From the NCBI RefSeq assembly GCF_964204645.1, contig NC_134031.1:17285807-17349806 (forward strand): 64,000 nucleotides of DNA. Reading direction: 5' to 3'. The DNA is from Tubulanus polymorphus (lineage: Eukaryota; Animalia; Nemertea). A model generated the notes under the pieces. It was not told the origin of the DNA. It saw only the letters and a program-made list of their open reading frames with translations, and did no database searches. Both the position numbers and the translations under genes were made by a program. This document shows, piece after piece, positions 1-55,260 of this stretch (the first letter of the stretch is position 1; every line of letters starts with the position of its first letter).

Positions 1-2300
1 TCAAATATTTCATCAAAATAAGAAAAACATGAATTACACAAGAAGATGCTGTTGTGCCATTGAAAATATCATCAAGATTTCATTGAAAAAAAATTAACAT
101 GATTCTAACTAGAGATGCTGTTGTGCCATTGCAAATTTGACTCGAAATGTCAAATATATCATCAAAATACAAAATAAACATGAATTTCACTAGAAGATGC
201 TGTTGTGCCATTGAAAATATCATCATGATTTCATTGAAAAAAAAAGATTAACATGATTCTAACTTGAAGATGCTGTTGTGCCATTGCAAATTTGACTCGA
301 AATGTCAAATATTTCATCAAAATAAGAAAAACATGAATTTCACTAGAAGATGCTGTTGTGCCATTGAAAATATCATCAAGATTTCATTGAAAAAAAAGAT
401 TAACATGATTCTAACTTGAAGATGCTGTTGTGCCATTGCAAATTTGACTCGAAATGTCAAATATTTCATCAAAATAAAAAAAACATGAACTTCACTAGAA
501 GATGCTGTTGTGCCATTGAAAATATCATCAAGATTTCATTGAAAAAAAAAGATTAACATGATTCTGACAAGAAGATGCTGTTGTGCCATTGCAAATTTGA
601 CTCAAAATGTCAAATATATCATCAAAATACATAATCAACATGAATTTCACTAGAAGATGCTGTTGTGCCATTGCAAATTTGACTCAAAATGTCAAATATA
701 CCATCAAAATACAAAATAAACATGAATTTCACTAGAAGATGCTGTTGTGCCATTGCAAATTTGACTCAAAATGTCAAATATTTCATCAAAATACATAATC
801 AACATGAATTTCACAAGAAGATGCTGTTGTGCCACTGAAAATATCATCATGATTTCATTGAAAAAAAAGATTAACATGATTCTAACTTGAAGATGCTGTT
901 GTGCCATTGCAAATTTGACTCAAAATGTCAAATATTTCATCAAAATAAGAAAAACATGAATTTCACTAGAAGATGCTGTTGTGCCATTGAAAATATCATC
1001 AAGATTTCATTGAAATAAAATTAACATGATTGTAACTAGAAGATGCGGTTGTGCCATTGCAAATTTGACTCAAAATGTCAAATATATCATCAAAATACAA
1101 AATAAACATGAATTTCACTAGAAGATGCTGTTGTGCCATTGAAAATATCATCAAGATTTCATTGAAAAAAAAAATTAACATGATTCTAACTAGAGATGCT
1201 GTTGTGCCATTGCAAATTTGACTCGAAATGTCAAATATATCATCAAAATACAAAATAAACATGAATTTCACTAGAAGATGCTGTTGTGCCATTGAAAATA
1301 TCATCATGATTTCATTGAAAAAAAAGATTAACATGATTCTAACTTGAAGATGCTGTTGTGCCATTGCAAATTTGACTCGAAATGTCAAATATTTCATCAA
1401 AATAAGAAAAACATGAATTTCACTAGAAGATGCTGTTGTGCCATTGAAAATATCATCAAGATGCTGTTGTGCCATTGCAAATTTGACTCGAAATGTCAAA
1501 TATATCATCAAAATACAAAATAAACATGAATTTCACTAGAAGATGCTGTTGTGCCATTGAAAATATCATCATGATTTCATTGAAAAAAAAAGATTAACAT
1601 TATTCTAACTTGAAGATGCTGTTGTGCCATTGCAAATTTGACTCAAAATGTTAAATATTTCATCAAAATTAAAAAAACATGAATTTCACTAGAAGATGCT
1701 GTTGTGCCATTGAAAATATCATTGCAAATTTGACTCAAATGTCAAATATTTCATCAAAATAAAAATAAACATTATTTTCACTAGAAGATGCTGCTGCGCC
1801 GTTGCAAGTATAGAAGATTTCATTTAAAAAAAGAATTAACATGATTCTAATTTGGAGATGCAGTTGTGCCGTTACAAATTTGACTCACATATCAAAGATT
1901 TCATCAAAATACAAAATTAACATGATTTTTCAATTAATTCAGAAGATGCTGTTGTGCCGCTGCAAATATCATGAAGATATCTGTGAAAAAAAATATCTAT
2001 ATGATTCTATCTAGAAGGTGCTGTTGTGCCGTTGCAAATTTGACTTGTTAAAAATTTCATCAAAATCTAATACATAATACAATACATGATTTTTTACTAT
2101 AACGTTCTGTTTTACCATCGCAAAATTTCAACTCGACGTTACATCAGAAGATTTCATATGAATCCAAAAATTGAAGTGTGCTATAACTCCAATCACATTT
2201 ATATACACATTTGACTAAAATGTCAAAGTTTTTCATCCAAATACAAAAATTAACATGATTTTTGCTAGAAGACGCTGTTGTGCCGTTGCAAATTTGACAA
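1..2300. repeat. Tandem satellite of alternating ~70-73 bp (A) and ~80-82 bp (B) units (dimer ~153 bp); decayed copies continue to ~3010
   Basis: Core GAAGATGCTGTTGTGCCATTG recurs, with GATGC at 45, 114, 196, 269, 349, 421, 501, 574, 656, 738, 820, 892, 972, 1042, 1124, 1195, 1277, 1349, 1429, 1460, 1542, 1615, 1695 and then diverging copies. The array runs off the left edge of the window. Confidence 0.95.
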
Positions 2301-3995
2301 GTTCAAGATTATCCGATGCGGAATTTAATACTTGATTTTTTGCTATGAGATGTTTGTGCCATTGCAAAATCTTAACTTGACGTTATGTCAAAAGATTTCA
2401 TACGTATCCAAAAATTGAAGTGTGCTATAATTCAAACGACATTTACATGATGCCGTTGTGCCTGTTTTCAAACTAAGTTGAAACAAATTACAATATTTAT
2501 TTGATTTCTACAATATAAGATGTCATGACGAAGTTGACTACTAAAAGTCAAATGAATTTGGAAAATGAAAATATCAATAGCTAGAGAATAGCAAATTCCA
2601 AGAAATATGATATATACATGATTTTTTCACTCTATAAAGATGCTGTTGCGCCATGACAAATTTGAATTATTGTCGATATATTCGATATGAATACTGAATT
2701 AAATAGAGTAAGGGAATAGTTGGAGTAGGCGTTAGCAAACTCCAAGAAAAAACCCTAAGGTAAATGTACGATTTGGTAAACGATATGTCGTATCTACACA
2801 AATTTGACATAAATATGTCAAGAAAATGCTGTTGTACCTTTAAAATTTACAAAATATTTTTTTTCAATTACAACATTTTAATATTTTTTTCTACTTATAA
2901 AGTTTTATATTTTTTTTGAATTTTTCAAATTTTAGAAAAACAGAACATATGTGTATATAGACTCGTTAAACGATAAGATGCTGTAGTGCCGTTGTAAAGT
3001 TGACATTGATAACGTCAAGAATTTCATAGAAATTCATTTAAAAAAAGCGTAAAAATAAATGTCCTGCGATAAAGTATTTCAAAAATAGTTGTAAACAAGT
3101 TGTATAAAAAATGAGTAAATATTGAGTATAGTTAGATAGAATATTTCAAAAATTGTTGTAAATACGTTGTATAAAAATCTAGTAAAAATCGAGTATACTA
3201 AGATAAAATTTGAAAATAGTTTTAGTAGCCTAGATACCAGAGTTATCACAGTTGTGTCTATCACTCATTACAATATAAAGTTTCCCTAGTTTAAGATAAA
3301 TTCGTTTTGAATAGCTAAGATATATAAATGCAAATATTTGACGAGAGCCGTTGTTCTTTAGACGGTGATGACTTGTCGATAGTTGGAGACTTGATACAAT
3401 GGAAGCCTTGTACATATCGGAGACTTGTCACTTCGTATTGTTAGTTATTTGACACTGTTGGAGCCAGCCTTGTTTTGGCAACGGAGATAGAGAGTTATCG
3501 CTTGCTCGGTTGGTAGAGCCTTGTTTGACAGTTAAAACTTGACACGCATTGATGAAACACACTTGACGCAGTTGGAGCTTTGTTCGATCGTGAAGATTTA
3601 ACACTTGGTGATTGAGTCCTCTATCAGTGTTGAAGATTAAGCGATATTTATCAGTGTTGCTGTAGTCTTATCGTGTAGTGTTGAAGACTTATTGGCTTCC
3701 AATCTCGGAGGCTTCTCTCTGTTGGAGTCTTTCTTGTCACTTGTTTAGTGTTTAGGACACTTGTCACCTGTCAGCGTCGGACGGAGTCTTATCAGTGTTG
3801 TTGAAGACTTATCATTTGACACGCTTATGGAGTCATAGCTGGAGACTCAAAACGGCTACTCGTCTAGACGTTAGAACGGTATTCGAAGAATCGGTCTGGT
3901 AAATCGGTAAAATTGAATGCGCAGGTCGAGAAATTCAAAATAAAAAAAGAAAAAAAGTCCGTTTATAATTTCTGCAGTTGCTGGTTTTTGAGGAT

Positions 3996-6900
3996 TTAAC
4001 GATGTCGTCGGAAGAAGCGGGTGCAGCGTCGCGCAAATCGACGGAACTTGGACATTCGTTTGTCTTCTTTACCGACAGAAATAAGGTTGAATTCTTCGTT
4101 GCCGTACATATCCTTCATATAATCTACCAGGTCATCGCGATCTTTGAAGTGCAGGAGAACGGCTCCACCGCTGGGAATCGGTCCGTGGCCATGCTTGTTT
4201 CGTGCGTGCGAGTCGTACACGTAGATTCCGGTTGGAGTGATCGGGTCTTTCATCAGCGCAGTTGAGAAGCCTTTTGCGCTCTGTCCGTTGACGACGATCA
4301 CCGCGCCGATCGAGCCTTCATCCGCCAGAGCATTTCTTACCGATTCATCTAAACAGGTTGCGCCGGAATCGGCGTCGTTTGAGCCATAGGTCGTTCCGTA
4401 GTAATCGTTCAATCTAACGAGTTTGTGGAATTTCGATACTTGTCTCAGCGGATGTTCGTCTGGCGCCAGGAAAAAATCTTTCGGCTGCAGTATGCAAACT
4501 GATTCGTAATGTAGGTCGTGTCCCTTCTCCAGAATTCTCTCCAGTTTCCGTTCGGTCCATTCATTTGCCGGGACTTTGATCGACTCAGAAAGTGCTTGAT
4601 ACGCCATGCTGGTGCACTGAGTTCCGCTGATCGGAGATTTTTCCATGTTGGGAATGTTGTTCTGGTGAAAGCGAGCCTTGATGCTGCGTTCGAGATTAGC
4701 GTATTGGAATCTAAAGAACGGATTTGATCTTTGAGACGGAGGCACCGACTTTTCACAAACTGCAGTTATGCTGGCCACTTCTTCGTCGGGCATATCTGCG
4801 CCTGTAAATAGAAAGAAAGAAAAACATATTCAAACGAGAACATTGTAAATAGTCCGTGAAAAGAGCTACTTCTGAGTGAGAACTTCTAAAAAAGTAAAAT
4901 CTATGAGGGGGCCGCATATTGTGTCTTTAAAAAGTTCTTCAATTGCAAAAAAAATCTGAAAAAAATTCGTAGAATCCTTGAACATTTGGGGCTACCACCC
5001 TCCACATGTCAGACCTATGCTACCCAGCAATTGATACTTACTTCTTACGTCATCCGAATCAGAATTAGTTATATCAGGTATGGACGAGCAGCTTAATTCA
5101 GAGATGGAATCAGCATTTGTGTCGGATTCGGAAGTCACATCAGAGCTTGCTTCAAAGATGGTTTGCAAGCGCGGTATGAAGCTTGCAGACCTCAATCGGG
5201 AGCTAGATCGTGGAGGGTTGAATCTACCGGCATCGTTGTCAGCCCCGACGCCGTGATCTTTGTTATTATCGGAAACTTTAGATACATCGTTTGCCACATC
5301 AGCATCGTTATCTGCATCAGCATCTTTAGCTACACCTGCATCTTTAGCTGCATCAGCATTTTTAGCTGCATCAGTGTCGTGAGCTACATCAGTATCGTGA
5401 GCTGCATCAGTATCGTGAGCTACATCAGTGTCGTGAGCTGCATCAGTATCTTTAGCTGCATCAGTATCGTGAGCTACATCAGTGTCGTGAGCTGCATCGG
5501 TATCTTTAGCTACATCAGTGTCGTGAGCTACATCAGTGTCGTGAGCTACATCAGCATCTTTAGCTGCATCAGTATCGTGAGCTACATCAGTATCGTGAGC
5601 TACATCAGTATCGTGAGCTACATCAGTATCTTTAGCTACATCAGTGTCGTGAGCTACATCAGCATCTTTAGCTGCATCAGTGTCGTGAGCTACATCAGTA
5701 TCGATAGCTGCATCAGCATCCTTAGTATCTACGTCATCATTTTCTGAATCGTCACCGCTGAATTCGCCTAACGATATATCACTCTGCGCACCTGGCACCG
5801 GTTCTTCGACCGCGCTGGCTAACGAGACTGAGCTGGAGCTCGTCGTAACTTTGCTCAAGTCGCTGAACTTTTCCTCGATCTATGAAAACACAACATAGAA
5901 AAACATTCATAGTTACAGGCTATGATAGCAGTTCAGACATGAAATCGAATTTGCCAAAAAAGTGGATAACGGGGCCAAAGAATTTAATCGCAAAAATTTG
6001 GGTCTGCTTATTGTTTACACCTATTCATTTATATTGAAGGCCTATACATACATTGCAATAGTAAGGCTACTTCTCAATTTAAAAAAAAGCTTTGATCATT
6101 CTTACTTGATATAAGCCTTGGCCTAGTTTTATTTGGTAAAATTCAATTAATTTCTAATTCACTTCAATTATTCTAACTACCACTAGGTTTCAGGAAAAAC
6201 TCAATGGTCTAATTCATTTCTATTTTAGGTGTCAGGTCACGGAAAATCCACCAGAAACATATGCATTATGATCAGAAATAATCTTATGTGCAAAACGAGT
6301 CTAATTCATCAAAAGAAAAGACAAAATTTGTCAAAATTTTTTCTTGGAATTCAAAATAAATCTAAATTTAAACCAATTTATAGTGTCTATTGTTGATGAG
6401 ATCACTTCCTTGTGAATGCTGATTCGGGCCACAAAATTACATATTGATTAAACAAAGAATGTTTGTTTCAAAAAAAAATTTAGTTTGTGTTTTTGAAAAA
6501 AAGTTAATTTCAGCGCCTTGTGAAAATAACTAGCCGAAATAATTTTCAGGTCCTGAAAACAATTAGAAATTTTTTTCAGATTCCCAAAATTTTTTTCAGT
6601 CGGTGCTAAAAACAACTCGGTCCTAAAAACAAAAAAAGTCAAAGTTGTCTTGAGAACTTAAAAAAATTTTTTGAAATCAACTAGTTTTTTCAGCGGGTGC
6701 TGAATACACATTTTAGGGCCTAAAAGTTGTTTTCAGGACCTTAAAGTTAATTTCGGATCCCCCAATCAACTTAACAATATTTATCTTTTAGGTGGTGCTG
6801 ACAAAAAAATTATTCAAAAAAATACAAAAAAAAAAATTTCAAAAAAGAATTTTTTTTTTGAAAAAAATTTCTTTAAAAAAACTATTTTCTGGCCCAAATC

Positions 6901-7043
6901 AGCTACCATCTATTCTCAGTGAAATATGAAGTGATTAAACGATGTGTCCATACCTTACTATCGCTGTCCATTGGCTTAACATGAGGCTGTATTCTGCCGA
7001 AACAACACAAGAAAAAACTCGGAAAACGATTTTCGCGAGGCAT
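3996..7043 (-). CDS. 3-exon gene, ~577 aa: N-terminal Cys-Cys segment, acidic hexapeptide repeat region, C-terminal herpes-tegument-like (peptidase C76/VTD) deubiquitinase domain
   Basis: Exons 7043-6954 (MPRENRFPSFFLCCFG..., AAG|gtatgg), 5879-5042 (catag|ATC...AGAA|gtaagt) and 4801-3996 (ttacag|GC). Intron phases 0 and 1 join in frame (1734 nt). Exon 3 has IKARFHQ...SGTQCTSMA and IYVYDSH, matching the Gln, Q-C and D-x-H motifs of C76-type DUBs. Confidence 0.8.
5289..5720 (-). repeat. Coding 18-bp minisatellite, 24 units of D-[TA]-D-[VA]-A-[HK]
   Basis: 432 bp = 24 x 18; translation DADAAI DTDVAH DTDAAK ... DADVAN within exon 2. Confidence 0.95.
6418..6903. mobile_element. MITE / non-autonomous DNA transposon in intron 1
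   Basis: TIR GCTGATTCGGGCCACAAAA (6418-6436) versus TTTTCTGGCCCAAATCAGC (6885-6903), 17/19 complementary. AT-rich non-coding interior; related sequence at ~34100-34610. Confidence 0.65.
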
Positions 7044-7273
7044 TTTGTCACTCGAATTTCTTCGCTTCACTCAGCCACAGTAGTCTAATGGAAATAAATC
7101 CTAAAAAGTAGAGATTAAAGAGTTTACAATTATGTAATGAGCGACCCGATCGGGCTAGGGGGTGCGGTAGGGTTGAGGTTTAATTCGAAGGACGTCTTTC
7201 ACTCGTTGGATATTTCTCATTGGTGGCGAAAAAATGGCCGTCATTTCGATCGCGGCTTCATTCAAAATATTGA

Positions 7274-7640
7274 AAATACCGTTAAAAGATTTACCGGGTG
7301 GGGTAAAGTAGAGAGAGGGTTTGGGGAGATAGCGAGGACTGAAATATAACAAGATAGCCAACGTGACAGAAGGCCGAGAGCGCGACGACCAGTTCGGGCC
7401 GGCGGATCGGGCCGGACCGCGAGGCGCGCATGGCCGACCCCAGGACAGAGACTTCGATCAATCAACCAATAAATACCATTAAAAGTTTTGCTGGGTGGTG
7501 TAGAGTAGCGAGAGGGTTCTCATGAGATAGGGAGACTTGAAATATAACAAGTTAGTCAACGTAGAAGAAGGCCGAGCGCGACCGAGGAGAGAGGGGGGAC
7601 CGGACGCGCGTGACCACCCGACCCCTCGATCAATCAACCG
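7274..7640. repeat. Diverged ~195-bp direct duplication, possibly part of a solo LTR (7133-7668)
   Basis: AATACC.TTAAAAG...GGGTGG.GTA.AGTAG.GAGAGGGTT...TGAAATATAACAAG.TAG.CAACGT...GAAGGCCGAG.GCG...CGATCAATCAACC occurs twice. Enclosing segment starts TGTAA and ends TTACA, but no TSD is seen. Confidence 0.7.
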
Positions 7641-9369
7641 ATTCTACATCATTTCTAAGTTAGTTACATCTATTTCCACTTGTCACGGGATAGAACACGG
7701 GCTAGATTTACGTATACATACCTTTTCTTCTGTGAATTAGTGAATTCTGACGTCGATTAGTTGAATTTTCTAAGAGAATTCTGATCGTGTCAGAGTAATA
7801 TTGACAAGAAAATGTCGGTAACTACGATTTCACGAATTCTGTTGCTAGGATGCGCGCTGTGTATTTTGGGAAAAAGTGAAGCCGCATTGCATTATGGTCC
7901 TCACAGTATAGGCTGGGCCAAAATTAAAGGCTATTTTTACCTGTGTGTCCTACGCGTGCAAAATAGAAGTGTGAATCGTTGACTTAATCAATAATATTAT
8001 CGTTTTTATTGTCGTTTAGTAGTGAGAGGACATGTCACCATCGATTTTCATCATATTTTACATTATAAACATTTTGACACTTAATTCACGGGTCATTTAA
8101 CTTAAATTTAAGTTATTTAATTATGTCCGTCTTGATTTTCCATCTAGTGATTTGCAAAAAGTTAGTTTCTTTTTCACTTCGAATCAAATTCATCACAATT
8201 TTCACCCATTTTGAATTGTTCTCTGCAATCGTCCCGAGATTTCAGATGGAAAATCCTGGAATGATAAGAAAAATATCTATCTTCATCCTTTCTCCAGTTC
8301 CCTTCGGCGTTTTGAAACGCCCACATGAAAAGAAATACTTTCCCCCTTCGTAAAACATGAAATATAATAAAAAAATGGAATATATATTTGTCTAATTATA
8401 TAATTTTTCAATCGGCAGTCCTGAAGGATGCCTTTTGGTTTCTTGAAAAAAAAAAACTGATAAAAAGTCTTTCTTGATAGATGATGAATAAACTTGAGAC
8501 ATACTGACTCATATTCGCTTGAGCGGAGATCTAGAAAATAATATCGTAGATGCATGACTCGATAAGCGACATGATATATAGCAGCAGGTTTGTGGGCCTG
8601 TGATGGGCGGTATATAGGCCACGATCTATCCACCTGTCGCACCCGGTGAGCGCCTATCATCCGCTGTCATTCTACAAGATTCTACGACGAAACTTGATGT
8701 ATCACCCGGGCGCGCGGTGCGTCAACCTGCCTGCGAGACTCAACGTTATTCACCCGAGCGGCAGTCTGTCAATTTATTGAGAACGATGATGCCAGTTCCT
8801 TGACGTTTTAAGAAATCAGTCATGACCTCACTATACGATTCGGGGTCGTGGGAAGACGCGTTCGAGTCCATATAACATACCACGAAACGTACATAAAAAT
8901 ATTCGATATCTTTGATGCGGTTCCCCGCAACAAAAGCCATTACCTACTAAAGAAGCCTTTCTAGACAATTCGGGCCCGTCAAAGTCAAAAACCGCTTTAC
9001 AAAAATAGCGGAAATCCATGACGGCTAGATAATGTAATGAACAACAACAACAAATACAGCAAAAATTGCTCCAGATTCTGCTTTTTAAAAGTCTGTATAT
9101 TTTACCAACGATCACGCCCGGGGATGATCCGTCTTTTTTTTATTCCAGGCACCGTTTCTACCAATGACTTTTTAGCCGCGTCATTTCGTTCCATTATTAC
9201 AACTTCCAAACACATCTTCATCTATTATTCACAACAAAAGTATAATGGTATCATCGACTTGAGAGGCCTAGTATGGCTTGACAAGTCCGGGAAGTTTATC
9301 AACGCATTTTAAAGGTTGAAGATTTCGATTATCGATTTTCCCTATACGTTATAAACGAATACGTCAGTG

Positions 9370-9528
9370 AATGAAAACCCACAGTAGATTTGTAGAAACA
9401 GTTTTTGGTCCTCTGAAGATGAGGTTTAGTTCTAACCTAGAAACTGTTAAGAAATAAACTGTTTCTACAAATCTACTGTGGGTTTTTATTCGTTCTATAC
9501 TGAGATTTATATCAGTTCACTACAGTCC
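9370..9528 (+). mobile_element. Penelope-like retroelement pLTR fragment with inverted 5' segment and degenerate hammerhead core
   Basis: 11-bp TSD ATACGTCAGTG (9359-9369, 9529-9539). ~35-bp inverted repeat AAAACCCACAGTAGATTTGTAGAAACAGTTT / AAACTGTTTCTACAAATCTACTGTGGGTTTT. Core CTGAAGA(9413)-TG-AGGTT..AACCT-A-GAAAC. Confidence 0.65.
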
Positions 9529-10439
9529 ATACGTCAGTGTTCGATCCAGACGCAGCTGAAGCCACAGGTCCGTGACTTTCGAATGAACTCCTCGCAAAAA
9601 AGTTTGGTTACACTCGGTTTTGATTCGAAAGTACTATTTAACTATAACTATTAAGCTTAATACACTTACAGCTATTACAACATATTAGGGCTTTGATAGC
9701 CTATATTAAATCTGCTATATAAGATTTTTATATCAGCGAACTTCGCTCGGAGGACATATTCGAGCATAACACTTTCAAAAGATTCCCAGGGAAGGCTCTC
9801 AGATTCGCGTTCAGTTCGAAGCAAATCAAAAACGAACCCCGTATTCCTCGACCTGAAACCATAAACCATCAAATTTTTGAATTATATTCCTCTAATGCAA
9901 TATCGTGTGATAACACTAATGTATAAATAAAATTGCAACCGTGAGAAAGTTGCGAGAATGAGACGGAAATTTTATCAAATCTCTGGGATGAGAAAATCGT
10001 GAAGATATGGTTAGAGTTGATAGCTTATAATCGCATAATGATGACCTTGTGCGGTCTTATCGCTGGCATACGATCGAGACGTTGGGCTTAGCATTCACGC
10101 ATTTACACTGGGATTGTCATTCGGCGCCTTTGTCATCATTTTCCTGCCGTAAGTGGCAACTTGTAAATGCCGGAAAACCATCAAAATGACGTTTGAGAAT
10201 GTTTGAAGCTTATCAGAATCAAACACTATAATAGATACAAAAATTATTCGGTGGCCGTGAGAAACACGGTTTTATCTGGCACGAAATGATGTACTTTAGG
10301 CCCTCCACTGATAAACTGATTTTAATGTTATTTACCTTTATCAGTTAAATCTTTGATTCTTAGCGTGAGATCTCGATTTTATATTCACAGACAATATGAG
10401 AGTCAAATCTTAAAACTTAGACCTGATTATAGGGTACCT

Positions 10440-10670
10440 GGGACCAGTTCCACGGAACGACTCGAAGTGTCATAATTGATAATAGTGGAACTTTAAGTAG
10501 GCTCCGCAAAACTGGTTTTAGATTGGGGACGGTTCAACAGCCATGACTTGGACGTAAGATCAGCCACGATCTCGGTTCTATAGCCGAAATAATGACTTAA
10601 GTCCGGTCGTAAGATTTGAACAACTTTTTGACTTAAAGTCTATGTAAAACTATGGAAGCGCAGCTCGAAC
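10440..10670. mobile_element. Degenerate MITE copies of the family seen at 49522-49807
   Basis: GGGACCAGTTCCA and GGGGACGGTTCAA termini; interior GACTT..AAGATCAG..GTTCTATAG..ACTTAAG..TAAGATTT..ACTTTT matches the Prdx6-intron elements. Confidence 0.55.
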
Positions 10671-11097
10671 TGTAAATCAAGGCCGTTGCAATCCCATCAA
10701 AATGCAATATGTATGATCCTTCATTCACGATTATTATGTAGAATTCACTTTCCCTTGTAATTCACAGTCATTTTGAAAGGGAACTTTTCTTGATTGTTTA
10801 TGAAAATTACTGTCCCGAAATCAATCGGTTTGAAATCGCTTTTGCTGGAGCCAGTTCCAGTCTCTTTGCCTCACGATGAAATCTAGAGTCGAACTACGAA
10901 AATATGAACGGAAAATAACCAATTAATTCAGAAATAATAATTACCAGTATCTTTATTTTCACTCTTTGTTCGGTAAATGCTCGCACAAGTTTTCGCATGA
11001 TATGCATTTATTATATACAATATAATAAGCAAATATTCATTTATATTTATATTACGGTACATGGTTACAGGTATCCTGGCGCAACTTCAAGCAGGTC

Positions 11098-11240
11098 TAT
11101 CACACAATTTTTACAATATGTCGTTGCATATAAGTACAAGGCCGCAGGTCGGAAAAATCGCACGTTAGAAAATTGTTTTCCAGCAGATTTTTCGATTCTA
11201 ACTAAAACCTTTATATATATATATTTATTCATCATCACAG
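11098..11240 (-). promoter_or_regulatory. K-box (miR-2 family seed) sites in the Hes 3'UTR
   Basis: TGTGATA (plus-strand TATCACA 11098-11104) and CTGTGAT (ATCACAG 11234-11240). AATAAA signals on the minus strand at 11224-11229 and 10952-10957. Confidence 0.5.
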
Positions 11241-11714
11241 AGATCTTTGTAATATTCATGTTTCTTTAATGATATCAATACTTAATGTGTTTAAATTTCT
11301 TTTTGTATATACAAACTTACACATATCTTACAAATTTACAATTAAAGTTCTTGTGAACTATATACATACTTTCTACACCGGACTTATTGCCATATATAGA
11401 TGGTATTATTTAAATATACATATGAAACAAAACACAACAAACTTCTTACTTAGATTACACGATAAGGCCGAATCTCGACGGAAGCCCAAAATCATACAGA
11501 TAGCACAGTTCAAAGTCAACATTCACAGATTATTCATTCATACACTCACATTCACATTAAATGCCCAAAGAAAATTAGAATATCGGTTCACGATATGATG
11601 CCGATTTAGAAAAAAGAAAAAAATTGCCATTTGCAATCATAAGTAAATGCATATAGGTATAAGTATCGACTAATCATCATTAGCTCCTCGATTAGAGCAG
11701 TGAGTAGTTCGTTT

Positions 11715-14700
11715 TTACCACGGTCGCCAACAGGGGTCGCTGGGGTCAGTGACGCGATTAGTGTCTGCTTTATCGGGTGAACCGGAACTGGAACTGGCAG
11801 CCGGACTAGTTGTGAAGCCGCTTGGCGACGAGCCAAGCGAAGCAGACGATTTCGTTGACGGTGATGTATCGGATGAGGTGACGGTTGATTTTGGCGTTTC
11901 GGGGAGGTTGCACATGTTTGAACCGCTAGGAGGCGAGCTTTCGTTCTTTATCCAGTTTATCTGGTGACTGTTGCTATTGAGCGGTGTCATGTGCAGACTG
12001 TTGGCGGAGTTAACCGGTGAATTTTCTTTCGACGAGGAATACGATTCGACCGGGGACACGGGCGAGTAACGCATAGGCATCGGGCTACAGTACATATTCA
12101 TAGGCTTTTGTTCTAATGGCGATGATTTCTGATTCACCATAGTGTTCATTACTGGCGTCTGCGGCATCGACATGGCAGGAACCCCCATCACCGGGGTTGG
12201 CGTTGCGATGCCGTTATTTTGTCCGTTGTTAAAGATTGGCAGCACGCAATTCGGTATTTGATTCGAGTTGTTCAACATTGTCTGCGGAATGACGAATGCC
12301 AGATCACCATTGGGTAACCTGGTCGGTACGAGTTGGACTCCTTGTTGACCTTGGGTCATAGGAACGTTTACGGGCATCGTTGTATTCGGTAAAATGTTCG
12401 CCGGTGTTTCGCGGTTCATCTGTCCGAGCACGTGTGGGTTTGTCGGCGGGTTCGATATTTTCTTCAAGTTGGTCATCGTATTAGCGAGATGATTCAGGAG
12501 GCGAGCTCGTATTTCTACGTCTAAGCCTTCTAACGAGCCCAGATATCGAGTCACTTCGGTGGCGCACTCGTTGAATCCTGCCGAGTATTTGCCGAGTACA
12601 GACGGATCTTGCGATACGGCACCTGAAATGATAAAAACATATGAACAATGAGTAATATGAAAACTTAAATACAGCTAATGACTGATAAATAATCAAATTA
12701 CGATGTTATCAGGCATAAACATTTTTGGCGCTTTCCCACGATTGTGTCGTTTGAAAAACATAATGGTCGAACCCGGTAATTCATCTGGGATTGGTAAGCA
12801 CTTGTGTGTACGCTGCCTGTTATAAGTTGAACAGAAAGTAAACACATTTCACTGTGTAGAGTTTGTGTCGTTCTTTGTCACCTTTTGAGCCAGGAGAGCA
12901 ACTTGGCATAGCCTAGTTCACAACGTGACGTCATCTAGATTTATATTCGATGGGAAATTATACTCTTTCTCTCTCGAGACTTTTACTACGCGCGTGAAAA
13001 GGCATTCTTTCCACAATTAGATTAGAAAATGAAAGAAAAAATACCGAGAAATCGGTTGACGCGTTGTAATCGAAAATTAGGAGAGATATTTCAAGTATTA
13101 AAGCTTTTTTTTAAAGTGCCGAACAAAGACCAACCCAAGATTTCTATTTCTTTTTCTAGACTTTTTACTTTTCATGAATTCTAACGCGACAAAAATCAGA
13201 TTTGGCGCCAGAAATGATGTTATGTTCGTAAAATGCACTTGACAATCGCTGGCAAGACGCTCGGATAGACACGATGAATAGGGTCATTCATCGCCGTGAA
13301 CACGGAGAAGAATGCAACCCGGAGGCTGAGCGTATAGAACCACCTGATTGCCTACACGACAGGTCCGAAAACTCGAATGACAGGTCCTTTTCAAGACAAT
13401 AATTGATCGCGAAGAAATGATGTTTTTAGTACGAAACCCCCTTTTCATTCAGTAATTTAAAAGTTTGCTTCACCCCGCCAGATCATTCACATCATAGAAA
13501 TTTGAAATCGTCGAAAATGCATGATGGCCAACGGTTTTTGGACGCGCTGCGCGCACTAGCTTCGTTGGGCTTCTTTTTTAACCTATGGCGGCGTCGCACG
13601 CAAAAGTTTTGAAGGCGTAGTAACCAGATTGAAAAAATCACGAGGCTTCAACGGACTGAACGAGGTAACGGATGGAGTGCTCTTGATTTTCGAGATGCGC
13701 TCAAGACCAATCCATTGACAAAAACCGGGATGCTTTTTATCGTGAGAAAATAAAAGAGTTTGGCGCGTATCGTAGGGACACGTAATCATGCCGATTTGTC
13801 GGCTCGATCGAAAAATATAAGAGACAAATTGAGTGTTGTAGAGTGTCCTTGCCGGATACTTACTAGTGAACTGTTGTCGTTGGATTTGCCGGAGATGTTT
13901 TACGCTCATTTCGAGGATATCAGCTTTCTCCATTCTATTGGCTGGTCTTCCGCCCTGAAGTGGCAAAGGTACACGATTATAATGTAGGTTGAGTTTACTA
14001 TAAGTATTTGGCTCAGGAACCCGTGAGAAACGAAGGGAGTTTGAAAAAAATATGTTTGTTAACGGAACATATCTATCCACCTGTTTGCTCAGGTTTTTAA
14101 GTCTAATACTTTAAGCGAAATGTTAGGTCAGGTGCAATCTCCAAATGAATACACGATGGCAAATAAAAAGTACGCTTTATGATAAACTGAGAATTATGAG
14201 AATGAACCGTATGTATACATATATAGAAATCAAGACTAATAGAAATCAAAATTGTCGAAGGCTTGCTTTCCCTATGTGCGGTACAATTACAGGTAATTTG
14301 GAGTTTTATTGTTGCCAATAATTGTCATTCAGACAAATGCTTGAATGCAGAGACGCCAAAAAGCGAAAATTGCTTGTCGTAGTAATTTTTGCATAGAAAG
14401 ATGAAGGCAATCATATTTAAGTATAATCGGTGTCACGCACTAATGCTCACGTCACTTTCGAGAGTTTCGTATCCGGGGCGGTCCACCTGCAGAAGTTTGT
14501 CATACCCCACACGTGCATATCTATACCAGGAAGTGTTATAGACATACCGACTCTACAAGGTGGCACCAGGAAATCCGAAACCCGACTCAAGACGACAAGA
14601 TACATATTAGAATAATAGAAAAGCGTATATTTACCTCTTTGCGCATGACCTCCAACAGAATAGCTTTCAGTTCTAATAGGCTAGCATTGATTCGAGCCCG

Positions 14701-15086: not shown

Positions 15087-18000
15087 CTTATACTTCTCGT
15101 GTATCAAATGCATTCAGTATAAGCAAGTAATATAATCCAGGCCTGGTAAGAGTTCGATGAAGGTCAGTCAAAAACTGTTGTCTTCGCAAAAGTCTTCAAT
15201 TTGTCTTTCGCACGCAGCTGACGTGTCTCGCAGAGTGAGAGAGAGAGGAGCGACCGCGACCGAAATCAGTGTTGGAATGAGATGAACAGGTTGTGTCACA
15301 GGTGGATTATTACACCGGCACAGGTGGTTGCCAGTCGCTCATTCGCTCAGCCACCCGCTGACGTCATAATACACCTCCGACGCGACTTCAGGTGCATCGG
15401 CGATGGAATCTAAACCCACGTGATCGGCAGTCCGAACGAATGGCCGCCTGCATTATTCAAACTCGTTCTCTCGCTCGCTTCTATTCTACTAGGCCCCTAA
15501 TGATTGACTTTTTAAAAAGAAAATCACCACGCCCTTGGCCAGCTTACTAAAGTGTGGAAAATAAGTATTCAGACTCGATGAAGTGGGAACTGTCGTCCTT
15601 AACCCCGGCCCGAGAAGTGTCGTAAAGCGTGTCTTGAGTGTGCGTGACATCAGCACTCCACGTTCGAGCGCATTTCAGCGCCTTTCAGCTTAACTTGATA
15701 TGTCGATTCAAGAGTTAAGCCGAAACCTATTTACGACAATCTAAAATTCGACGACTGCTGAAAATAAATTGAATGTGTAAACAGTATGTAGAGGCTCGCA
15801 CGTACATACGAATACGAATTGGAATGTGTGAATCTGAAAATAGATTGAAAATATTAAAGCTCATATCATAACTCAAGACTCATCTCATTGGATCACTAAA
15901 TTGTTCAAACTTAGATTTGAAATTCATCAAAGTAAACTTTATAACTGCCTTCCAATTAACTAATTACAATCATTTATGCAGTAATGAATGACACGTAATC
16001 CCACAATAAACCTTATCAATAAAATAGAAGAAGCTGATAAAGTAAGCTATGTGATTCGAAGAATCGAAAGCTCATTTTAAGCGAATTCCCATGATGACCT
16101 GTCGAACTTGAGATCTACATCAATTTCGGTATGGTCAGTCTCACGTGTCTATTGGTTATTTCAATAAATATCAATTTTTATCAAGGCAAGTTGTGAGAAA
16201 ATGAAAAACCTCATAAATGTACGTATATATATGGATTTTGAAGAGATGATGGTACACCGGTTGAACAATGTGATTTCTGCTTGGATGCTGTTCGGGAATA
16301 CAAGGAGCGCTTTTGTAATGGATGATAGAACCTATTGGCGCATTCACAGTAGCCGGTCAACAATTCATTTGGGATGAACAACTACTTTTTTGAATTCGCT
16401 AAATTCTCCGGGTCGTTGCTACCAGCCTCGAGAACAGGCCGGTAGTCGGTTGCAATTCACTTCTAGACTACGAGTGGCCCGGTAAACTCAACTATTCGGG
16501 GGTCAAGTTGAAATTGAGAATCGTGTCTGTTGATCCTTGCTCATTTTGTCGCGTCGCAAAAAATGCCCTTGTGCAAAAGTATATTCAAAATATGCATATA
16601 ATGGAGAAATGCCGTCAGGGATATTAGAATGTGAATATTAGAATATTTACTATCTAACTGGCGTTTCCAAGTTCCATAGCCCTTGATCAGAATGAAAATG
16701 AAGTTCAAATTAAGAACGTCTCGCAGAACGGTAGAAAATCCTTCATTTTCCGATCTCATTCTAAAACAGTGAAATAGTCGAGAATGCACGATGCCAACGG
16801 CCAACTATAAGACAAAGTGAAAAAGGCTTTTCTATATATTGTTTTTCGAATTTTGTATCGTCAAAAAGGTAGGGAGCGATAAAATCTTCAAAAGAAGCTT
16901 TTTGAAATAGTTTGTATAAAACCTGTTGGTATGTGGAATTTCGAAAATCTAAGAAATGATTTTCAGTACATAACGATCAAGATGGGCGTAACGGTCTCAC
17001 GCTCAGCATGATACATTTGATGTCTGGCCTCACGTCAATGCGTCAGGTAATCGAACGCTCCACCAGCGTGGACTTCAATTTTGTCACGTTCTCATTCAAA
17101 AAATTGGCATTATTCAAAGCACATTAAACTGCATTTCCTGGGATTGAGTCAGACATCACCTATGGAATGAGGAAGTATCGCCACAATAGCCGACGGTTGG
17201 ATTTCAAATCTCGGCACAAATAAAAATGTAAACTCCATGCACTTGTCGTAAGGTTGCACACATGAGGAAGTCGCGACAAAGCCATTGAATGGCTGGTGTT
17301 TTGAGAGGTCTAGTACGACGCAAACAGGTTATTCATCGGGGCTTCACCGCCGCGGGATGAATGTTCGAACGAAAGATGTTTGTCAAAGCCGTTCGGCGAT
17401 TTATGGATTCCAGCCTCAGCCGATGAATGCAACCTGTTTTGAGGATACCTACCTGCTAGGTAGATAATAGTATCGTATTGTAAGATAATACGAATCCAGG
17501 GTTTCGCGCTATAGCTTAACTCAGAGTCCGAAATAACGCAAACAAATTCAGCCAATTCAGAATGAAACATTGTAGACTTTATTCGCCGCAATTTATAGGC
17601 CTCTAGTTGACTTACGCCGAATAACCAAACATTACGTAAAAGGGAACAGATATTATATATCCGATGATTATTTGAGTTCGGGAATGCATAATTACGCGAT
17701 TGAGCGTCAAACCCGGAATATTTTGTCCCGCTTTCTTTTGGCAAAATCATATCGATTAATCTTTTATCGTTTTGGTCAAACACGATCACGAACAGATAAA
17801 GCTACCGCGTGCGTGCACACCTGGCAATGTGCAAATATCGCTGAAATATTTGTGTCATTTCTTATCATATGCTGAACATAACACGATGTCAAAGTCTAAG
17901 ATGACGTACGTACTCGGAAAAGCTGCCAAACGCATCAAGACACCATCTCGTTTTAGAACGAAACTAAAACGATAGATATTACCCGATGATTCTATGCTAC

Positions 18001-36372: not shown

Positions 36373-37140
36373 TTATTTTCTAAGTGAGTAGAGTTTCTCG
36401 GAGCCGGACGCGTATAATTTATTATCAGCAGATATTTCTCGTTTAGCAGCAGGAACGATAGGAGCAAGTCCGCGGCGTCCCATGCCGGATCTAGGACGGC
36501 CGGCAGAGGGCGGTCTCGGTGATTGGGAGCAGCCCATGTGTAAATTCTCGACGGATTTCGAAAGTTCGATGCCTCCGCCGTAGACGGGTAGTTTCTGTGA
36601 TGGATCAGTTGACGCGCGTTTATGGACGTTCGGCAAAACTCGATTCGAACCAGAAATCACTGGTAGATTCTCCATTGATCGACTGCCTTTGATTTCCGGC
36701 AGTTGTACCGCCAAGAGCCTGCTACCTTTAGAAGCAGCCACCGAAGGCGAACCCTTAACCGGCAGCGTATCCTCGAAGAGCACTTGGTTTTCATCCTTTT
36801 CCTCGTTTCCACTGAAGCTTTTATTCAGATCTTGCTCGGCTTGTTTTAATTCACTACGCATTTTTCGCTTCGTCAAAAACGACGGCGATGCAGCCCTGGC
36901 GATTCCGGACGCGTTAGAATGACCACTTCGATTTTTCCCGGTTAGAACAGTCTGTTTGTACTGCTTAGCCGCACTCAGACGCGTTTGTTTAGCCTGTTCG
37001 TAGGCTATATCCGGGGGATTATCGACCTGGTCGAACTCGGCGGCTTCGAATGCGTCGACGTCGACATTAACCGTATCGGAATCGACAGAACCAGTCGACA
37101 GCCGATCGATGACGTCATCTGTTACGTCATTTTCCGCCAT
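36373..37140 (-). CDS. Uncharacterised 255-aa low-complexity protein, single coding exon
   Basis: Long hydrophilic ORF. An in-frame TAG upstream makes ATG 37140 the start. Acceptor at ~37180, candidate 5'UTR exon ~37648-37717, AATAAA on the minus strand at 36169-36174. Confidence 0.75.
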   Translation of the reverse strand: MAENDVTDDVIDRLSTGSVDSDTVNVDVDAFEAAEFDQVDNPPDIAYEQAKQTRLSAAKQYKQTVLTGKNRSGHSNASGIARAASPSFLTKRKMRSELKQAEQDLNKSFSGNEEKDENQVLFEDTLPVKGSPSVAASKGSRLLAVQLPEIKGSRSMENLPVISGSNRVLPNVHKRASTDPSQKLPVYGGGIELSKSVENLHMGCSQSPRPPSAGRPRSGMGRRGLAPIVPAAKREISADNKLYASGSEKLYSLRK

Positions 37141-38790
37141 TTCCACACGCTACTAACAGCAAACGTATATTCCGATAGTCTAGATGAAACCAAGTGTTAG
37201 TAATCCAAGTCAGCTATACTTGACGACAAGAACGAATACTTTTTACTGCGAACAATATGTATAAAAACTATAAAACACTTGGAGTATCTAAAGTGTACAG
37301 AATCTCGTGTGACAGCTCCTTCAGGTAATAGTTCGCTGTACGAATCGGAGAGCTATTTCCCGGCGAAATCCTGCTCTACTAAATTATTGACAACATTTAT
37401 TGGACGACGTTTACCACTCAATCAACGACGCTGGGATGCCATTAGAGCTGCGCTATACGCACGTGTTAGTGTATCCTGAGCTAACTGCAAATAATCGTAA
37501 ATGGCGAGTTCGAGTCGACACGAAAATGACAAACCATTAAAAGCTTTTTAATTCGTGACATGTAACACGGTATACTGTAGCGAACTATTGTCTAAAACGA
37601 ACTGAAACCTACACGTACCGCCAAATATATCGGAATCAAAGTCTTACCATTCGAGAAATCTCACGACTTACAGCAGCGTCGTTATCCTACGTCAACTGCA
37701 GCTATACCGTCTGCGATCTGAAAAAATTTGCTCGAAATAGAATGACAACGCTAACTCGCAAACATTTCAAAGCACTGAAGTTTAGATTATACACGAATCG
37801 AACACTGATAAGCCGTAATCGATACGCTTAAAAACTATCGGCGTTAATCGATACGTTTCGAAACTTTCAATCGTTCATAAATAATTCGTCGTTATCACAA
37901 CAGTTCACCGCAAATCGAATATATCGCGGTCCAATAATGCAAAGAGCTAAATTGATACGGGCCAATAAACTAAAGACATCCCTCATACTCCGGCGGTTAC
38001 CACTACATCGTTCTGACACGCTCAATTCGTCAAGAACATCAGTTATGTACTGGTAGTATTCATCATGGAAGTTCCCCCGGAGAGTTGCGGAATCGATATT
38101 CTCGTTTCACTATGGAGACACGGTCGGTTCACAGCGATAAACCACATTATATCGGATATCATTTATTTCTGCCCCGAATCCTGAATAAATGATAATACAT
38201 ACTACACCGATCGGCAGACGACAGACACGATGGGAAATTGTAGAGGGAGCAACGGGCGACTTATAGGGGTCTAATCAATTTGATCGGATACATTACTGAT
38301 TGCACAGCGATTATGCAAGTGACTGTCATGTAGTTGAATTCTGTTTAGGTAAAAGAAGTTAGATTTTTTTCGTTTATGAAGAGTAAAACACTAAAAACAT
38401 TAGACATTTTTTTAATAACGAAAAGCCATTTATTGATGATAGTTTCTCTGATGATTGGTTTATTACGACATTTTATTGAAATGATTGCGCGCCTATACAT
38501 ACATACATACACAAAATACATAAATATATATATATATATATAGGTCTATAGATTAAATAACATATATCACAGCAATGCTAACAAAACATAATTCATAGTT
38601 CGACGAACAGGAACATCGACACGACACCCAGGGTAACATATCTGGCCACGGAACGACGTCGCGGTGCCCACAGAAATTTCGTTCAATTTACCGATCAATA
38701 CAAATGAGAAAGAATTCGCCCATCTCGTCTGTATAGTATGCAAAAATTCGTAATTTCTGTATACATTTATGCGTTAGATATTGTGTCAAA

Positions 38791-41700: not shown

Positions 41701-42931
41701 CCAGAGCATCGGCACGTTTTCGATACCAAAAATATTTCTTTTTTTTTGTTTTTATTAGTTTCTCAGCAACGGACCGAATAGTATCAAATCTACCTATAAA
41801 AATTACACTTTCTTGTTATACTTTCTTGTTTCCCAATTCCCTGACGATTCCCCGAAAAGAAAAAAACTATCTACCAAGGCGGTTCACATTGCAGCATTTA
41901 CGGCATTCGAATTACCTTTTATCATAGCACTGCATGTTATCTATTGAACGTCATTGTGCGTCTTGTTTCAACAACTACAATAAACCTTTGATTGCGATAT
42001 TAAGATTTTTGAAACGATTTTTTACGATCATAGATTTTGCGCAAATCGGTATTTCCAGTCCGGGTTGTCTGAGTATATTTATATCGTAACTTTGTTCGAC
42101 CTGCAAATCGGTTTATTTGTCTATGACTCTAGTGGTTATTCAGAATATAACGGAATAAAAATACGTTATTTGAATATTTTGGGGGTGATTCAAGTGTATG
42201 TACGGAATGACGCGTTATTATCTTTCTGTTATGTAGAAAAATTGAAAAAAATGATTTATCAAAGTACAAACTATTTTTCGTAAAAGAATTTTCTGTTAGA
42301 AATGGAGTAAGAAAATAACAATGAAAAGTATCGACGACATCAAAAAATATGTGAGAATGGAAAATGAAATACGTGGGAAAGGAATTGAGTTGAAATAACT
42401 CACCGCGTAATTTTGTTGTGATTGGAAATATAGTGATTAGAAACAGGAAAGTTATTTGTTATTTGAATGTAACTCTGCGAAAATTGTATCTTGATTGCTT
42501 TTTATTTACGTATTTTATCATATCATCTCGGTCATAATCGGGCTTACCTTTGGACGAACTCTTGAAGCCATCGGGTCAGATAGCAAACGACGCATATGTT
42601 TAATTCGTTCTTGGGCCTCTTCCGCATCGGACCGACTTGTTTTGGCCACGATCGTCGGAACTCCTCGATACAAATCGGACCTATCCCAATACCGGCTGTT
42701 AAAATCCACCTCGTACAGACTCAGGTACTTTTTCGGTAGCCCGTTTCGGGCGTAGTAGTCGTCCCGACTTTTAGCGCTTCTCGGAATCAGACCCGTGCTG
42801 TCCATGTTGATAAGTCTCCATTCACGGGCGATCGTGTTCCCGGCGGCGTCTCCGAATTTCGGAAATTTTACCTGCTTCGGCGGCTTCATAGTTTTCGTCA
42901 AGTCTTTCGCTGTTATCACATCGGTCGTCAT
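38791..42931 (-). CDS. Uncharacterised ~428-aa protein, 8 exons
   Basis: Exons 42931-42548, 40996-40949 (weak acceptor), 40286-40217, 39957-39907, 39824-39652, 39573-39369, 39285-39174 and 39034-38791. All introns GT-AG with matching phases; ends TWHHLPKY...RHFTIHPDWGV*. Confidence 0.8.
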
Positions 42932-44340
42932 GATGACACTTCAATAAGAATCGCAGACGAGGTTTTAACTAATAGCTTCTAGTCTGATAGACCGCTTACT
43001 GAGCTGTCTGCTACTGATCAGCAAAACGGCTTTTATTTTATCAATGTTGCGTGAACGAATCAGAAATTCAGACGTACATATGTGTATTACGACGACGTGT
43101 TACTCACGGCCACAACTAGTCCTCATTAACGATTATTATACAGATTTAATCCTCTCTTGAAAGACGGGACGGGAGAAAATGATTTTTCGCGTTTAGTCTC
43201 TTAGGTTTGTTAGGAAAAAAATCAACACACTATAAATCGGTACGTATTTGTAGGTTTATTCGGACCTTTGAAAGTCTTCAAGCGTGATGGCTCCGGGTGA
43301 CCGACCGTCATACATAGTCATTAATAAGATTAACCTTTCATGGCTTAATAAATAGTTATAATTAAGGCAAACAGAATACCGTACGATAAGGGGTTTATGC
43401 ATACACACCCCCGGGGACACAGCTTGCCCGTTAACAGTGCAGCGATCTACCCAGATATCAATCCCAGCTTTATCAAAACCGACTATAAGATCTTTGATTT
43501 ACTTGAAAAGCAACAAACAGGGAAAAATTTGATCGTCTTTCGTAAGACAATAAGACTTGATTAATGTAATACACCTGTATGCACAGTACATTTTCAATTA
43601 GAGCTCATGGGCATAAAATCACCGCAGACTTTGGGAAACATTATGTTTTGCTGTATATTTGCTATAAAACTCATGGGCAAAATATTTATGATTTGATTAT
43701 CATCGTTAATCCGTTGATTATGTTCAGTCATATAAACGGAATTAACACAAAAACTACGGTCACGGTGAACACACTGCGACCACCGACCGGTTAGTTGCCG
43801 TAGGCATTGGTGTTCAGCAGAGACATATCTCCGTAGATATAAGCAATAATAATAAATAAGAAAAAGTACTTGTTTTTATTTACCGCCATATAATCTGTTT
43901 GAACAGTAAGCAATAGTTGAAAACATAATATGATAAATACATGATTTTGTTAATAGTTTAGCAATGCATTGGTCGAAACATAGAGCTTTAGTAATGTTTA
44001 TTCAGGCAATATATACAATTGAATTAAGTTGCAAAAGGAAATGGAAACGAAGAACTATTTACATTATGGATTGCAGTGCCTCCAAGAACTTACTGTTTGT
44101 TTGCGCCAACAAAACAAGAAATTGTTATTTCTAGCTGCAAGAAAAAGAACTTTTTCGCACGCTGTGGCTCATCAGCCACTACAGCATCGACATTTAAGAC
44201 GCTTAAAAGTCAACGTAATTCAAGTTAATTCGTTTATTATCCCTTATCCCTTCAACAAAGAATCGCCAACAAAATCCGAGTTCGCTGAACTGATCGAGCA
44301 TTTTCATTGAAAGCAGATTTGGAGTTCCAAATGATACGCA

Positions 44341-54829: not shown

Positions 54830-55260
54830 TATATAGTAACGTGTGGAGTGTGGAGAAACCCATTACAGCGGTACTGCTAGCTGGAAAACGATTAGGCTAC
54901 TGACTTGCGCTGTACTTTGCATAGCTGATGGGTCTTTTAGAAGCATAACGGGGCGCGTCCACGCTATATCGGACACTCTTGGTTTGATATATTACAGCAC
55001 TTGCGCACCTGAGAAACTTGACTTGTTTTTTTGTTGTAGCTGTGATTCGGATAAGTCAGTACCAATGCACGCCATGGACAACCAGCTTCCTCCGCACGAT
55101 CCGTCGGACCCAAATCTAAACGGTAAGACCATTTACAATATTCCATTCCAGTGGGGGAAATGCTACAAAGCTCTCGGGATCATAGTTGAAAACTCCTTTG
55201 GTGGTGGACATTTCTACGCCATGGAACTTCACTTGTATCCATTCACTGAAATCAAAGTTT
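54830..55260 (+). pseudogene. Possible decayed galactose-binding-like/discoidin (F5/8-C) domain fragment
   Basis: Frame-shifted pieces VYSNVWSVEK...GY*LA and APEKLDLF...CYKALGIIVENSFGGGHFYAMELHLYP resemble the start and end of such beta-sandwiches. Weak resemblance, by eye only. Confidence 0.25.

Follow-up and report, generated by a model that had tools for sequence, protein, structure and literature searches.

Background

Viral tegument-like deubiquitinases (VTDs) are a young class of deubiquitinases (DUBs) with a patchy spread, which may go back either to an old gene that was lost many times or to several captures from transposons. The family was defined by Erven et al. 2022 (PMC9741609), the available text of which describes domestication in insects and nematodes, cnidarian VTD fusions, and mollusc Helitrons that bear VTDs; DUF6570 is given as a marker of Helentrons in the accessible part of PMC11417382. 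The gene considered here lies on the minus strand at positions 7043-3996 of a 64,000-nt stretch of the ribbon worm Tubulanus polymorphus (assembly GCF_964204645.1, contig NC_134031.1, 17,285,807-17,349,806; hereafter the window). It is read with reasonable confidence as an intact, likely single-copy gene for a VTD cysteine protease, likely domesticated from a Helentron and a predicted DUB that would be held at a membrane by a basic C-terminal helix. The VTD family, its fold and its domestication as such are already published; the part worth following is a possible subfamily shared by ribbon worms and abalone.

The VTD domain

Exon 3 of the gene (4801-3996) is confirmed, by sequence profiles and a predicted model, as encoding a VTD (viral tegument-like, C76-type) domain. 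An exhaustive phmmer search of its translation against 1.84 billion proteins gave 59 matches at E<=1e-3 with identities of just 23-37%; 43 of these match Herpes_teg_N (PF04843), nine carry DUF6570, and one carries Helitron_like_N with PIF1. P0002, a protein with MucBP repeats, is a false positive among the 59. A profile built from the ribbon-worm domain and 45 of the matches retrieved 44 proteins, 43 of them annotated PF04843; against structures the same profile returned zebrafish DrT1-VTD2 (8ADD) at E 2e-32, followed by herpesviral tegument proteins, M48 and 8ADB. The domain also scores 73 bits against a profile of 37 proteins not hit directly, which excluded the query itself and whose members came from an alignment that held it, and the best of 500 shuffles reaches 3.6 bits. 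Because of the 59 matches and the difference between 73 and 3.6 bits, the match is considered to lie far beyond chance. By itself the exon 3 translation has no match in Pfam, in PDB sequences or in a word-indexed protein search (lengths 145-464); a HMMER comparison with Herpes_teg_N, proposed in a first-pass annotation of this DNA, succeeds through the 43 phmmer relatives and not directly. ESM Atlas matches of 0.92-0.94 include one cluster with Herpes_teg_N in 17% of its members, at a recognition value below the reliable level and a lead only.

An alignment-based AlphaFold model of the domain (predicted local distance difference test, pLDDT, 90.3; predicted TM-score 0.86) has the M48-like alpha-beta-alpha papain-type fold; single-sequence folding gave a pLDDT of only 34. 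The model aligns with DrT1-VTD2 at Z 25.5 (root-mean-square deviation 2.2 Å over 198 residues, 22% identity), with M48 at Z 20.7 (14% identity), with Wc-VTD1 at Z 16.0 and with AvrPphB at Z 12.4; Foldseek, likewise suggested in the first-pass annotation, finds 8ADD at E 2e-15 and M48 (2J7Q) at E 5e-11. For the K6-specific VTD subgroup (Waddlia, fungal, protist), represented by Wc-VTD1, Z is 16.0, versus 25.5 for the Helitron type. An interpretation of the C-terminal tail as the K6-type alpha9 helix is unsupported, the match to 8ADB reaching only as far as model residue 221 and thereby falling short of the tail helix.

A Helentron, and not a virus, is the most likely source of the domain, because DUF6570 or Helitron helicase domains are present in its relatives and the best structural fit is to the Helitron enzyme. 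Capture from a herpesvirus-like or other large DNA virus is very improbable: the model does match viral tegument proteins down to E 5e-12, and for several giant-virus proteins E lies between 5e-5 and 2e-4, but identity is 11-18% to viral structures versus 21-22% to the Helitron one, a comparison with viral contigs that reaches close relatives only found none, and the larger identified open reading frames (ORFs) of the window are host genes. The top viral fold match is the unnamed Q06VS9 (E 5e-12); the giant-virus matches are uncharacterised proteins of Indivirus, Catovirus, Tupanvirus and Yasminevirus. Judged by the model, these and Q06VS9 are possible non-herpes viral VTDs or YopT-like proteases.

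Catalytic and ubiquitin-binding residues

The catalytic residues of the domain are all intact, as had been proposed from the letters alone. Cys372 and Asp506-x-His508 align with Cys322 and Asp451-x-His453 of DrT1-VTD2 and are 136 residues apart, compared to 131 in that protein; the triad is assigned by aligned family columns and not by distances in the model. Among 97 domain rows, which include the ribbon-worm sequence and near-duplicates, the position of Gln356 is Gln in 95, that of Cys372 is Cys in 94, Asp506 is Asp in 97, and His508 is His in 96. A review mentions a conserved oxyanion Gln in its accessible part (PMC8123002). From this together with M48, we infer that Gln356 may be the oxyanion residue. 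By profile alignment, Asp424/Glu425 sit in the motif that holds D376/E377 of DrT1-VTD2, residues which matter for recognition of the ubiquitin tail according to the available text of Erven et al. 2022 (PMC9741609).

If expressed, the protein is very probably an active DUB. By analogy with the family, Asp424/Glu425 would grip the RxR of the ubiquitin C-terminus, and Cys372, activated by Asp506-x-His508, would cut after Gly76; likely substrates would be K48, K63 and K11 chains, perhaps also NEDD8, as for the Helitron VTDs that the domain most resembles. A non-ubiquitin target, be it mainly NEDD8, another modifier or a protein cut in the manner of YopT, is quite improbable, since in the accessible text of PMC9741609 (Erven 2022) all characterised VTDs cleave ubiquitin, and the D-x-H order and the Asp/Glu pair for the ubiquitin tail are retained here; in its favour are a fold related to YopT/AvrPphB (Z 12.4) and, from the same text, cleavage of NEDD8 by some VTDs and poor conservation of the ubiquitin-contacting hairpin region across the family.

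Gene structure

A three-exon ORF had been put forward in the first-pass annotation, and its frame is indeed open: exons of 90, 838 and 806 nt join to encode 577 residues with a single terminal stop, across two introns that are both GT-AG and have pyrimidine tracts (junctions predicted). The features are as follows, all on the minus strand.

6954-7043: coding exon 1 (residues 1-30), hydrophobic patch with Cys13-Cys14 (candidate S-acylation site), without Gly2
5880-6953: intron 1, 1074 nt, GT-AG, 29% GC (predicted)
5042-5879: coding exon 2 (residues 31-310), acidic low-complexity linker, from ORF and composition
5296-5720: tandem array of an 18-bp unit in 23.6 copies with 0% indels, coding for D-[VA]-A-[HK]-D-[TA] hexapeptides, from repeat analysis
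5151-5168: LxxIxE motif (residues 268-273), candidate PP2A-B56 docking site, a lead only
4802-5041: intron 2, 240 nt, GT-AG, 35% GC (predicted)
3996-4801: coding exon 3 (residues 310-577), VTD protease domain (about residues 345-555) and basic tail, from sequence, profile and fold matches
4614-4616: catalytic Cys372 codon
4206-4214: Asp506-Ser-His508
3999-4061: predicted basic amphipathic C-terminal helix (residues 557-577) with Cys570, beyond the VTD fold
7101-7721: possible intron of the 5' untranslated region (UTR), donor AAG/GTATGT at 7721, acceptor TTTTTAG/ at 7101 (predicted)

The motifs lie where they had been placed, with FFLCCFG at 7016-6996, FHQ at 4670-4662, the Cys372 codon at 4616-4614, DSH at 4214-4206 and the tail from 4061 to the stop at 3996. 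The splice sites are consensus-like, intron 1 running from AAG/GTATGG to TTTTCATAG/ and intron 2 from GAA/GTAAGT to TATTTACAG/; since many other GT/AG pairs likewise preserve the frame, the predicted junctions are the consensus-best choice among them and no demonstration. GC content is 43-50% in the exons versus 29% and 35% in introns 1 and 2. The non-repeat flanks of exon 2 hold no stop in the required frame, the other frames having 4 and 5 at the 5' end and 14 and 5 at the 3' end. An alternative donor at 6958 is predicted to join exon 3 in frame, skipping exon 2 and giving a protein of 296 residues.

The start codon of exon 1 stands in a CAAAATG context with an in-frame stop 30 nt upstream. 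From the sequence, donor 7721 and acceptor 7101 may give a non-coding upstream first exon. Just upstream of the start codon, at 7255-7640 and inside the possible 5'-UTR intron, are two GC-rich copies of a unit of about 200 bp, 81% identical over 110 nt; two alleles differ at 7 sites in 7557-7696. On the 3' side, the presumed 3' UTR at 3400-3860 (minus strand) holds degenerate short repeats, and 3300-3995 has no long ORF and no AATAAA or ATTAAA.

Host gene or transposon

The locus is likely a functional host VTD gene, and domestication is the most likely reading because the window has no Rep/helicase, the DNA contigs hold no second copy, and all four coding changes in domain and tail are silent. 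The lack of Rep/helicase, noticed at first reading, extends over all 64 kb: 12 longer relatives, the majority of which bear DUF6570 or helicase parts, match the window by tblastn at the VTD alone, no second VTD occurs among 1672 frames of the window, and the RepHel ORF of an autonomous Helentron (HLE2) is not found. In DNA run X1, each part of the gene lies on a single long contig at a depth of 38-41, compared to 32-34 for the hairy/HES region and about 2900 for a true repeat at 9380-9723. The copy-number check proposed earlier gives no second gene copy at >=80% identity in the X1 contigs, and the claim is limited to this because contig depth is no copy number; its scope is the X1 contigs and the window, and not diverged paralogues or Helentrons genome-wide.

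The X1 contig over 2500-5390 differs from the window at 22 sites, of which 7 are coding and 5 of those silent. Of the five allelic changes within exon 3 four are silent; the other, Glu316Asp, falls in the end of the linker, and from residue 345 on the count is 4/4. The silent excess in exon 3 has a binomial P of 0.010 when site counts are used and 0.031 on the assumption that 30% of changes are silent. No coding indel is listed in this contig, coverage of which is patchy in the middle of the repeat array. Silent polymorphism is considered modest support for a host gene, in a test of 5-7 sites in which X1 may be the assembly's own sample.

Non-autonomous Helentrons supply a further alternative, in which the VTD exon is a remnant or cargo that exons 1-2 adjoin by chance. 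In its favour, the closest relatives are of Helentron type, the locus is flanked by satellite DNA and repeats, and no annotated gene product is seen, since no protein above 37% identity occurs among the phmmer matches (50%-cluster library). This alternative is nevertheless improbable: it leaves aside the phase-matched canonical splice sites, the exon/intron GC contrast, the exon 2 flanks that are open in the needed frame only, and the silent polymorphism. Moreover, the VTD starts the ORF in most relatives and ends it here, no hairpin-plus-CTRR end is found 3' of the gene (a test for Helitron-type ends only), and X1 shows no multi-copy ends on both sides. As for the other terminal signals looked for, no paired inverted repeats surround the gene and its depth in X1 is flat. 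The earlier proposal of a domesticated or captured viral or transposon DUB accordingly splits: domestication is likely, given the silent changes and the depth, and a viral source has become less likely, given the DUF6570/helicase relatives and the better Helitron structure.

Linker and protein ends

The linker is strongly acidic, with 70 Asp/Glu versus 17 Lys/Arg in residues 61-310, and may act as a flexible spacer or regulatory arm. LxxIxE is the PP2A-B56 docking consensus in the accessible parts of PMC7108865 and PMC12357305; 431 of 20000 shuffles of the non-repeat part of the linker hold one, and the motif is not found in the abalone extensions.

The tail (residues 557-577) is a predicted helix outside the region that aligns with any VTD structure, and its polybasic amphipathic character, remarked on in the first-pass annotation, is borne out by the numbers: no other 18-mer in the protein equals its hydrophobic moment of 0.67, which 12 of 10000 shuffles reach, and the net charge is +8. 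It has 9 basic residues in 18, and four Phe lie along one helix face (40-60 and 320-340 degrees). In a comparison of the tail with 246 proteins, including 120 permeases, the best ungapped match is to the basic N-terminal helix of abalone P0025/P0078, where 8/16 positions are identical and the central Cys is among them; a score this high is reached by 59 of 5000 shuffled tails. The N-terminal patch is hydrophobic and weakly amphipathic (moment up to 0.42), and Cys13-Cys14 is a candidate acylation site from its appearance. Cys also occurs within the first 36 residues of P0018, P0025/P0078, P0038 and P0079, but not of P0048.

In the available text of PMC4072583, amphipathic basic helices, with or without palmitate, anchor GRK5/6. 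From its anatomy, the +8 tail would bind acidic lipids, and S-acylation of Cys570 and Cys13/14 would possibly aid membrane binding. The basic tail probably positions the enzyme, a membrane being the best single guess as to where; a membrane role for at least one end is given slightly less than an even chance, and such a role for both ends is unlikely.

The same enzyme could instead be nuclear or cytosolic, for instance with a role in the male germ line like that of domesticated insect and nematode VTDs, and with the Arg-rich tail as a nuclear or nucleolar signal, a binder of nucleic acid or calmodulin, or a partner of the acidic linker. Such a location is less likely, as a plain import signal has no need of the four-Phe helix face (12/10000 shuffles), and hydrophobic or basic N-termini with Cys are seen again in P0025, P0038, P0079 and P0018 (a recurrence given with no background comparison). 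It draws on the 9 basic residues in 18, on an acidic linker that could pair with the tail, on the male-specific expression of all domesticated animal VTDs with expression data (PMC9741609, available text), and on the protein sequence, which shows neither Gly2 nor a CaaX end nor any segment long enough to cross a membrane.

Relatives and trees

The architecture was not recognised at first reading; it is not unique, since abalone (Haliotis) proteins have the same layout. Most of 111 relatives with a scored domain begin with the VTD and extend C-terminally. Eight single-domain entries have >=85 residues before the VTD and <=25 after it, namely abalone P0025, P0078, P0038 and P0079, Logan P0018 and P0048, and P0102 and P0105; the last two, with a long N-extension and short C-extension, are not counted as stand-alone VTDs because they resemble cut-off element ORFs.

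The ribbon-worm protein groups with abalone proteins in three of three trees, below the trusted support level in each. In the 69-row tree the two are joined by P0018/P0048 (Shimodaira-Hasegawa-like approximate likelihood-ratio test, SH-aLRT, 89), and by P0033/P0057 both in the 40-row tree (SH-aLRT 93), where the ribbon-worm protein is flagged as a long branch, and in the 32-row tree (bootstrap 80, SH-aLRT 96). Near-duplicates were dropped and the subsets chosen by hand, and the 40-row tree is a quick version of the mixture model. A single clade of six C-terminal-VTD proteins is neither rejected nor shown (approximately unbiased test, p 0.254). QCTSM occurs in 7/97 rows (the ribbon-worm protein, five abalone entries from three genes, and P0048) and HQxx[ILV]P in 7/98; both motifs, like the tail match, were chosen after looking.

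The abalone look-alikes suggest an overlooked, likely domesticated branch of the VTD family. It is hypothesized, as an unlikely extension of this, that the ribbon-worm and abalone genes trace back to a Helentron VTD that was domesticated once, long ago, in lophotrochozoans and form a subfamily of active lipid-anchored DUBs, with the basic Cys-bearing amphipathic helix as a movable membrane tag, N-terminal in abalone and C-terminal in the ribbon worm. The linkers of P0025, P0079 and P0038 share L-x-L-K...P and C-x-C...H-P ahead of the VTD, which are absent from the ribbon-worm protein; from sequence, C-x-C...H-P is a possible metal site. P0079 starts Met-Gly and has Cys5.

Several points weigh against the reading of an intact, membrane-held enzyme domesticated from a Helentron. 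The domain has no Pfam match of its own and stands at 23-37% identity to its direct matches; the absence of any protein above 37% may mean that the gene is unannotated or weakly expressed, or that its record is withheld. The linker lacks similarity to the P0018 extension, the one extension compared, and similarly built relatives do not keep the tail at their C-termini. Although it has palmitoylation sites and is predicted to form an amphipathic helix, GRK4 is cytoplasmic, according to the available text of PMC4072583. The limits given above on the 37-protein profile, the triad, the X1 depth and polymorphism, and the motifs chosen after looking are to be counted on the same side.

Neighbourhood

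Upstream of the VTD gene lies a hairy/HES gene (11715-14110, minus strand) with basic helix-loop-helix and Orange domains (Hairy_orange E 3e-16) and a WRPW end. Downstream, window positions 1-3000 hold a satellite in which units of 72-82 bp alternate; its dimer measures 152 bp with 91% matches, and the array decays as position 3000 is approached. A high-copy hairpin element at 9369-9491 has 36-bp inverted arms that are 97% complementary and a depth of about 2900 versus 35 in X1; its loop holds CTGAAGA-stem-GAAAC, which resembles a hammerhead ribozyme core. In Rfam this element gives sub-threshold microRNA-hairpin matches only and no hammerhead, and nothing in window 1-14000 reaches the gathering score.

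A cationic amino acid transporter 4-like gene lies at 44344-46420 (minus strand), its frame open to 44849, past the splice site of the NCBI model; over its first 440 residues this permease ORF is 99.8% identical to an NCBI Tubulanus polymorphus protein, with Lineus longissimus next. Long frames without a Pfam match are present at 36376-37149, 42521-42940 and 17313-17801 (all minus strand) and at 54840-55328 (plus strand).

Comparison with known systems

An intact, spliced, Helentron-type stand-alone VTD of ribbon worms or molluscs was not found among the papers listed, most subscription papers lying outside the search. The available main text of PMC9741609 does not mention palmitoylation or introns, and the available supplementary text does not mention Haliotis, Lineus, molluscs, nemerteans, palmitoylation or membranes; its supplementary trees may hold mollusc sequences. 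Such a gene in Nemertea, with abalone look-alikes, adds a phylum to VTD domestication, and synteny across lophotrochozoans could show whether domestication happened once or repeatedly. Should the terminal helices prove to be anchors, the gene would also illustrate how an enzyme captured from a transposon gains a new cellular address.

Herpesviral large tegument DUBs (murine cytomegalovirus M48, 2J7Q; peptidase C76, PF04843) share the fold (Z 20.7), the catalytic triad, and the H-Q and Q-C motifs with the ribbon-worm protein, which differs in its identity of about 14%, the lack of a direct Pfam match and of a tegument scaffold, and its place in a host gene with introns. The herpesviral protein carries its DUB at the N-terminus of a capsid-binding protein of 2000-3000 residues, whereas the ribbon-worm protein has 577 residues, a C-terminal domain and host neighbours.

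Zebrafish DrT1-VTD2 (8ADD; PMC9741609), a Helitron/Helentron VTD, has the same fold, the Cys...Asp-x-His arrangement with similar spacing, and the Asp-Glu pair. Helitron/Helentron VTDs sit within a RepHel polyprotein; the VTD described here ends a spliced 577-residue protein that lacks Rep, helicase and endonuclease, and unlike them is flanked by an acidic linker on its N-terminal side and a basic helix on its C-terminal side.

Drosophila ms(3)76Ca, the Caenorhabditis elegans relatives and the inactive VTDs of insects (iVTDs) are, in the available text of PMC9741609, host genes outside transposons that are thought to be transposon-derived, as is the ribbon-worm gene. In that text the active domesticated VTDs (ms(3)76Ca and C. 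elegans) are very divergent with a single VTD domain, and the Helitron-like insect iVTDs lack catalytic residues; the ribbon-worm protein is Helitron-like, intact and extended, and is set apart from ms(3)76Ca by description, with no sequence comparison.

Closest in layout are the Haliotis proteins XP_071101173/XP_046362596, XP_046343483 and XP_046544285, known here from protein sequences and not from genomic context. They differ in their 26-29% domain identity and in shorter, non-acidic linkers with a C-x-C...H-P motif of their own; one has a basic amphipathic Cys-bearing helix that resembles the ribbon-worm tail but is N-terminal. Like the ribbon-worm protein, they combine an N-terminal extension (theirs of 104-144 residues) with one intact C-terminal VTD, and they share its QCTSM and L-A-x-D-E motifs and its Cys-bearing N-terminus.

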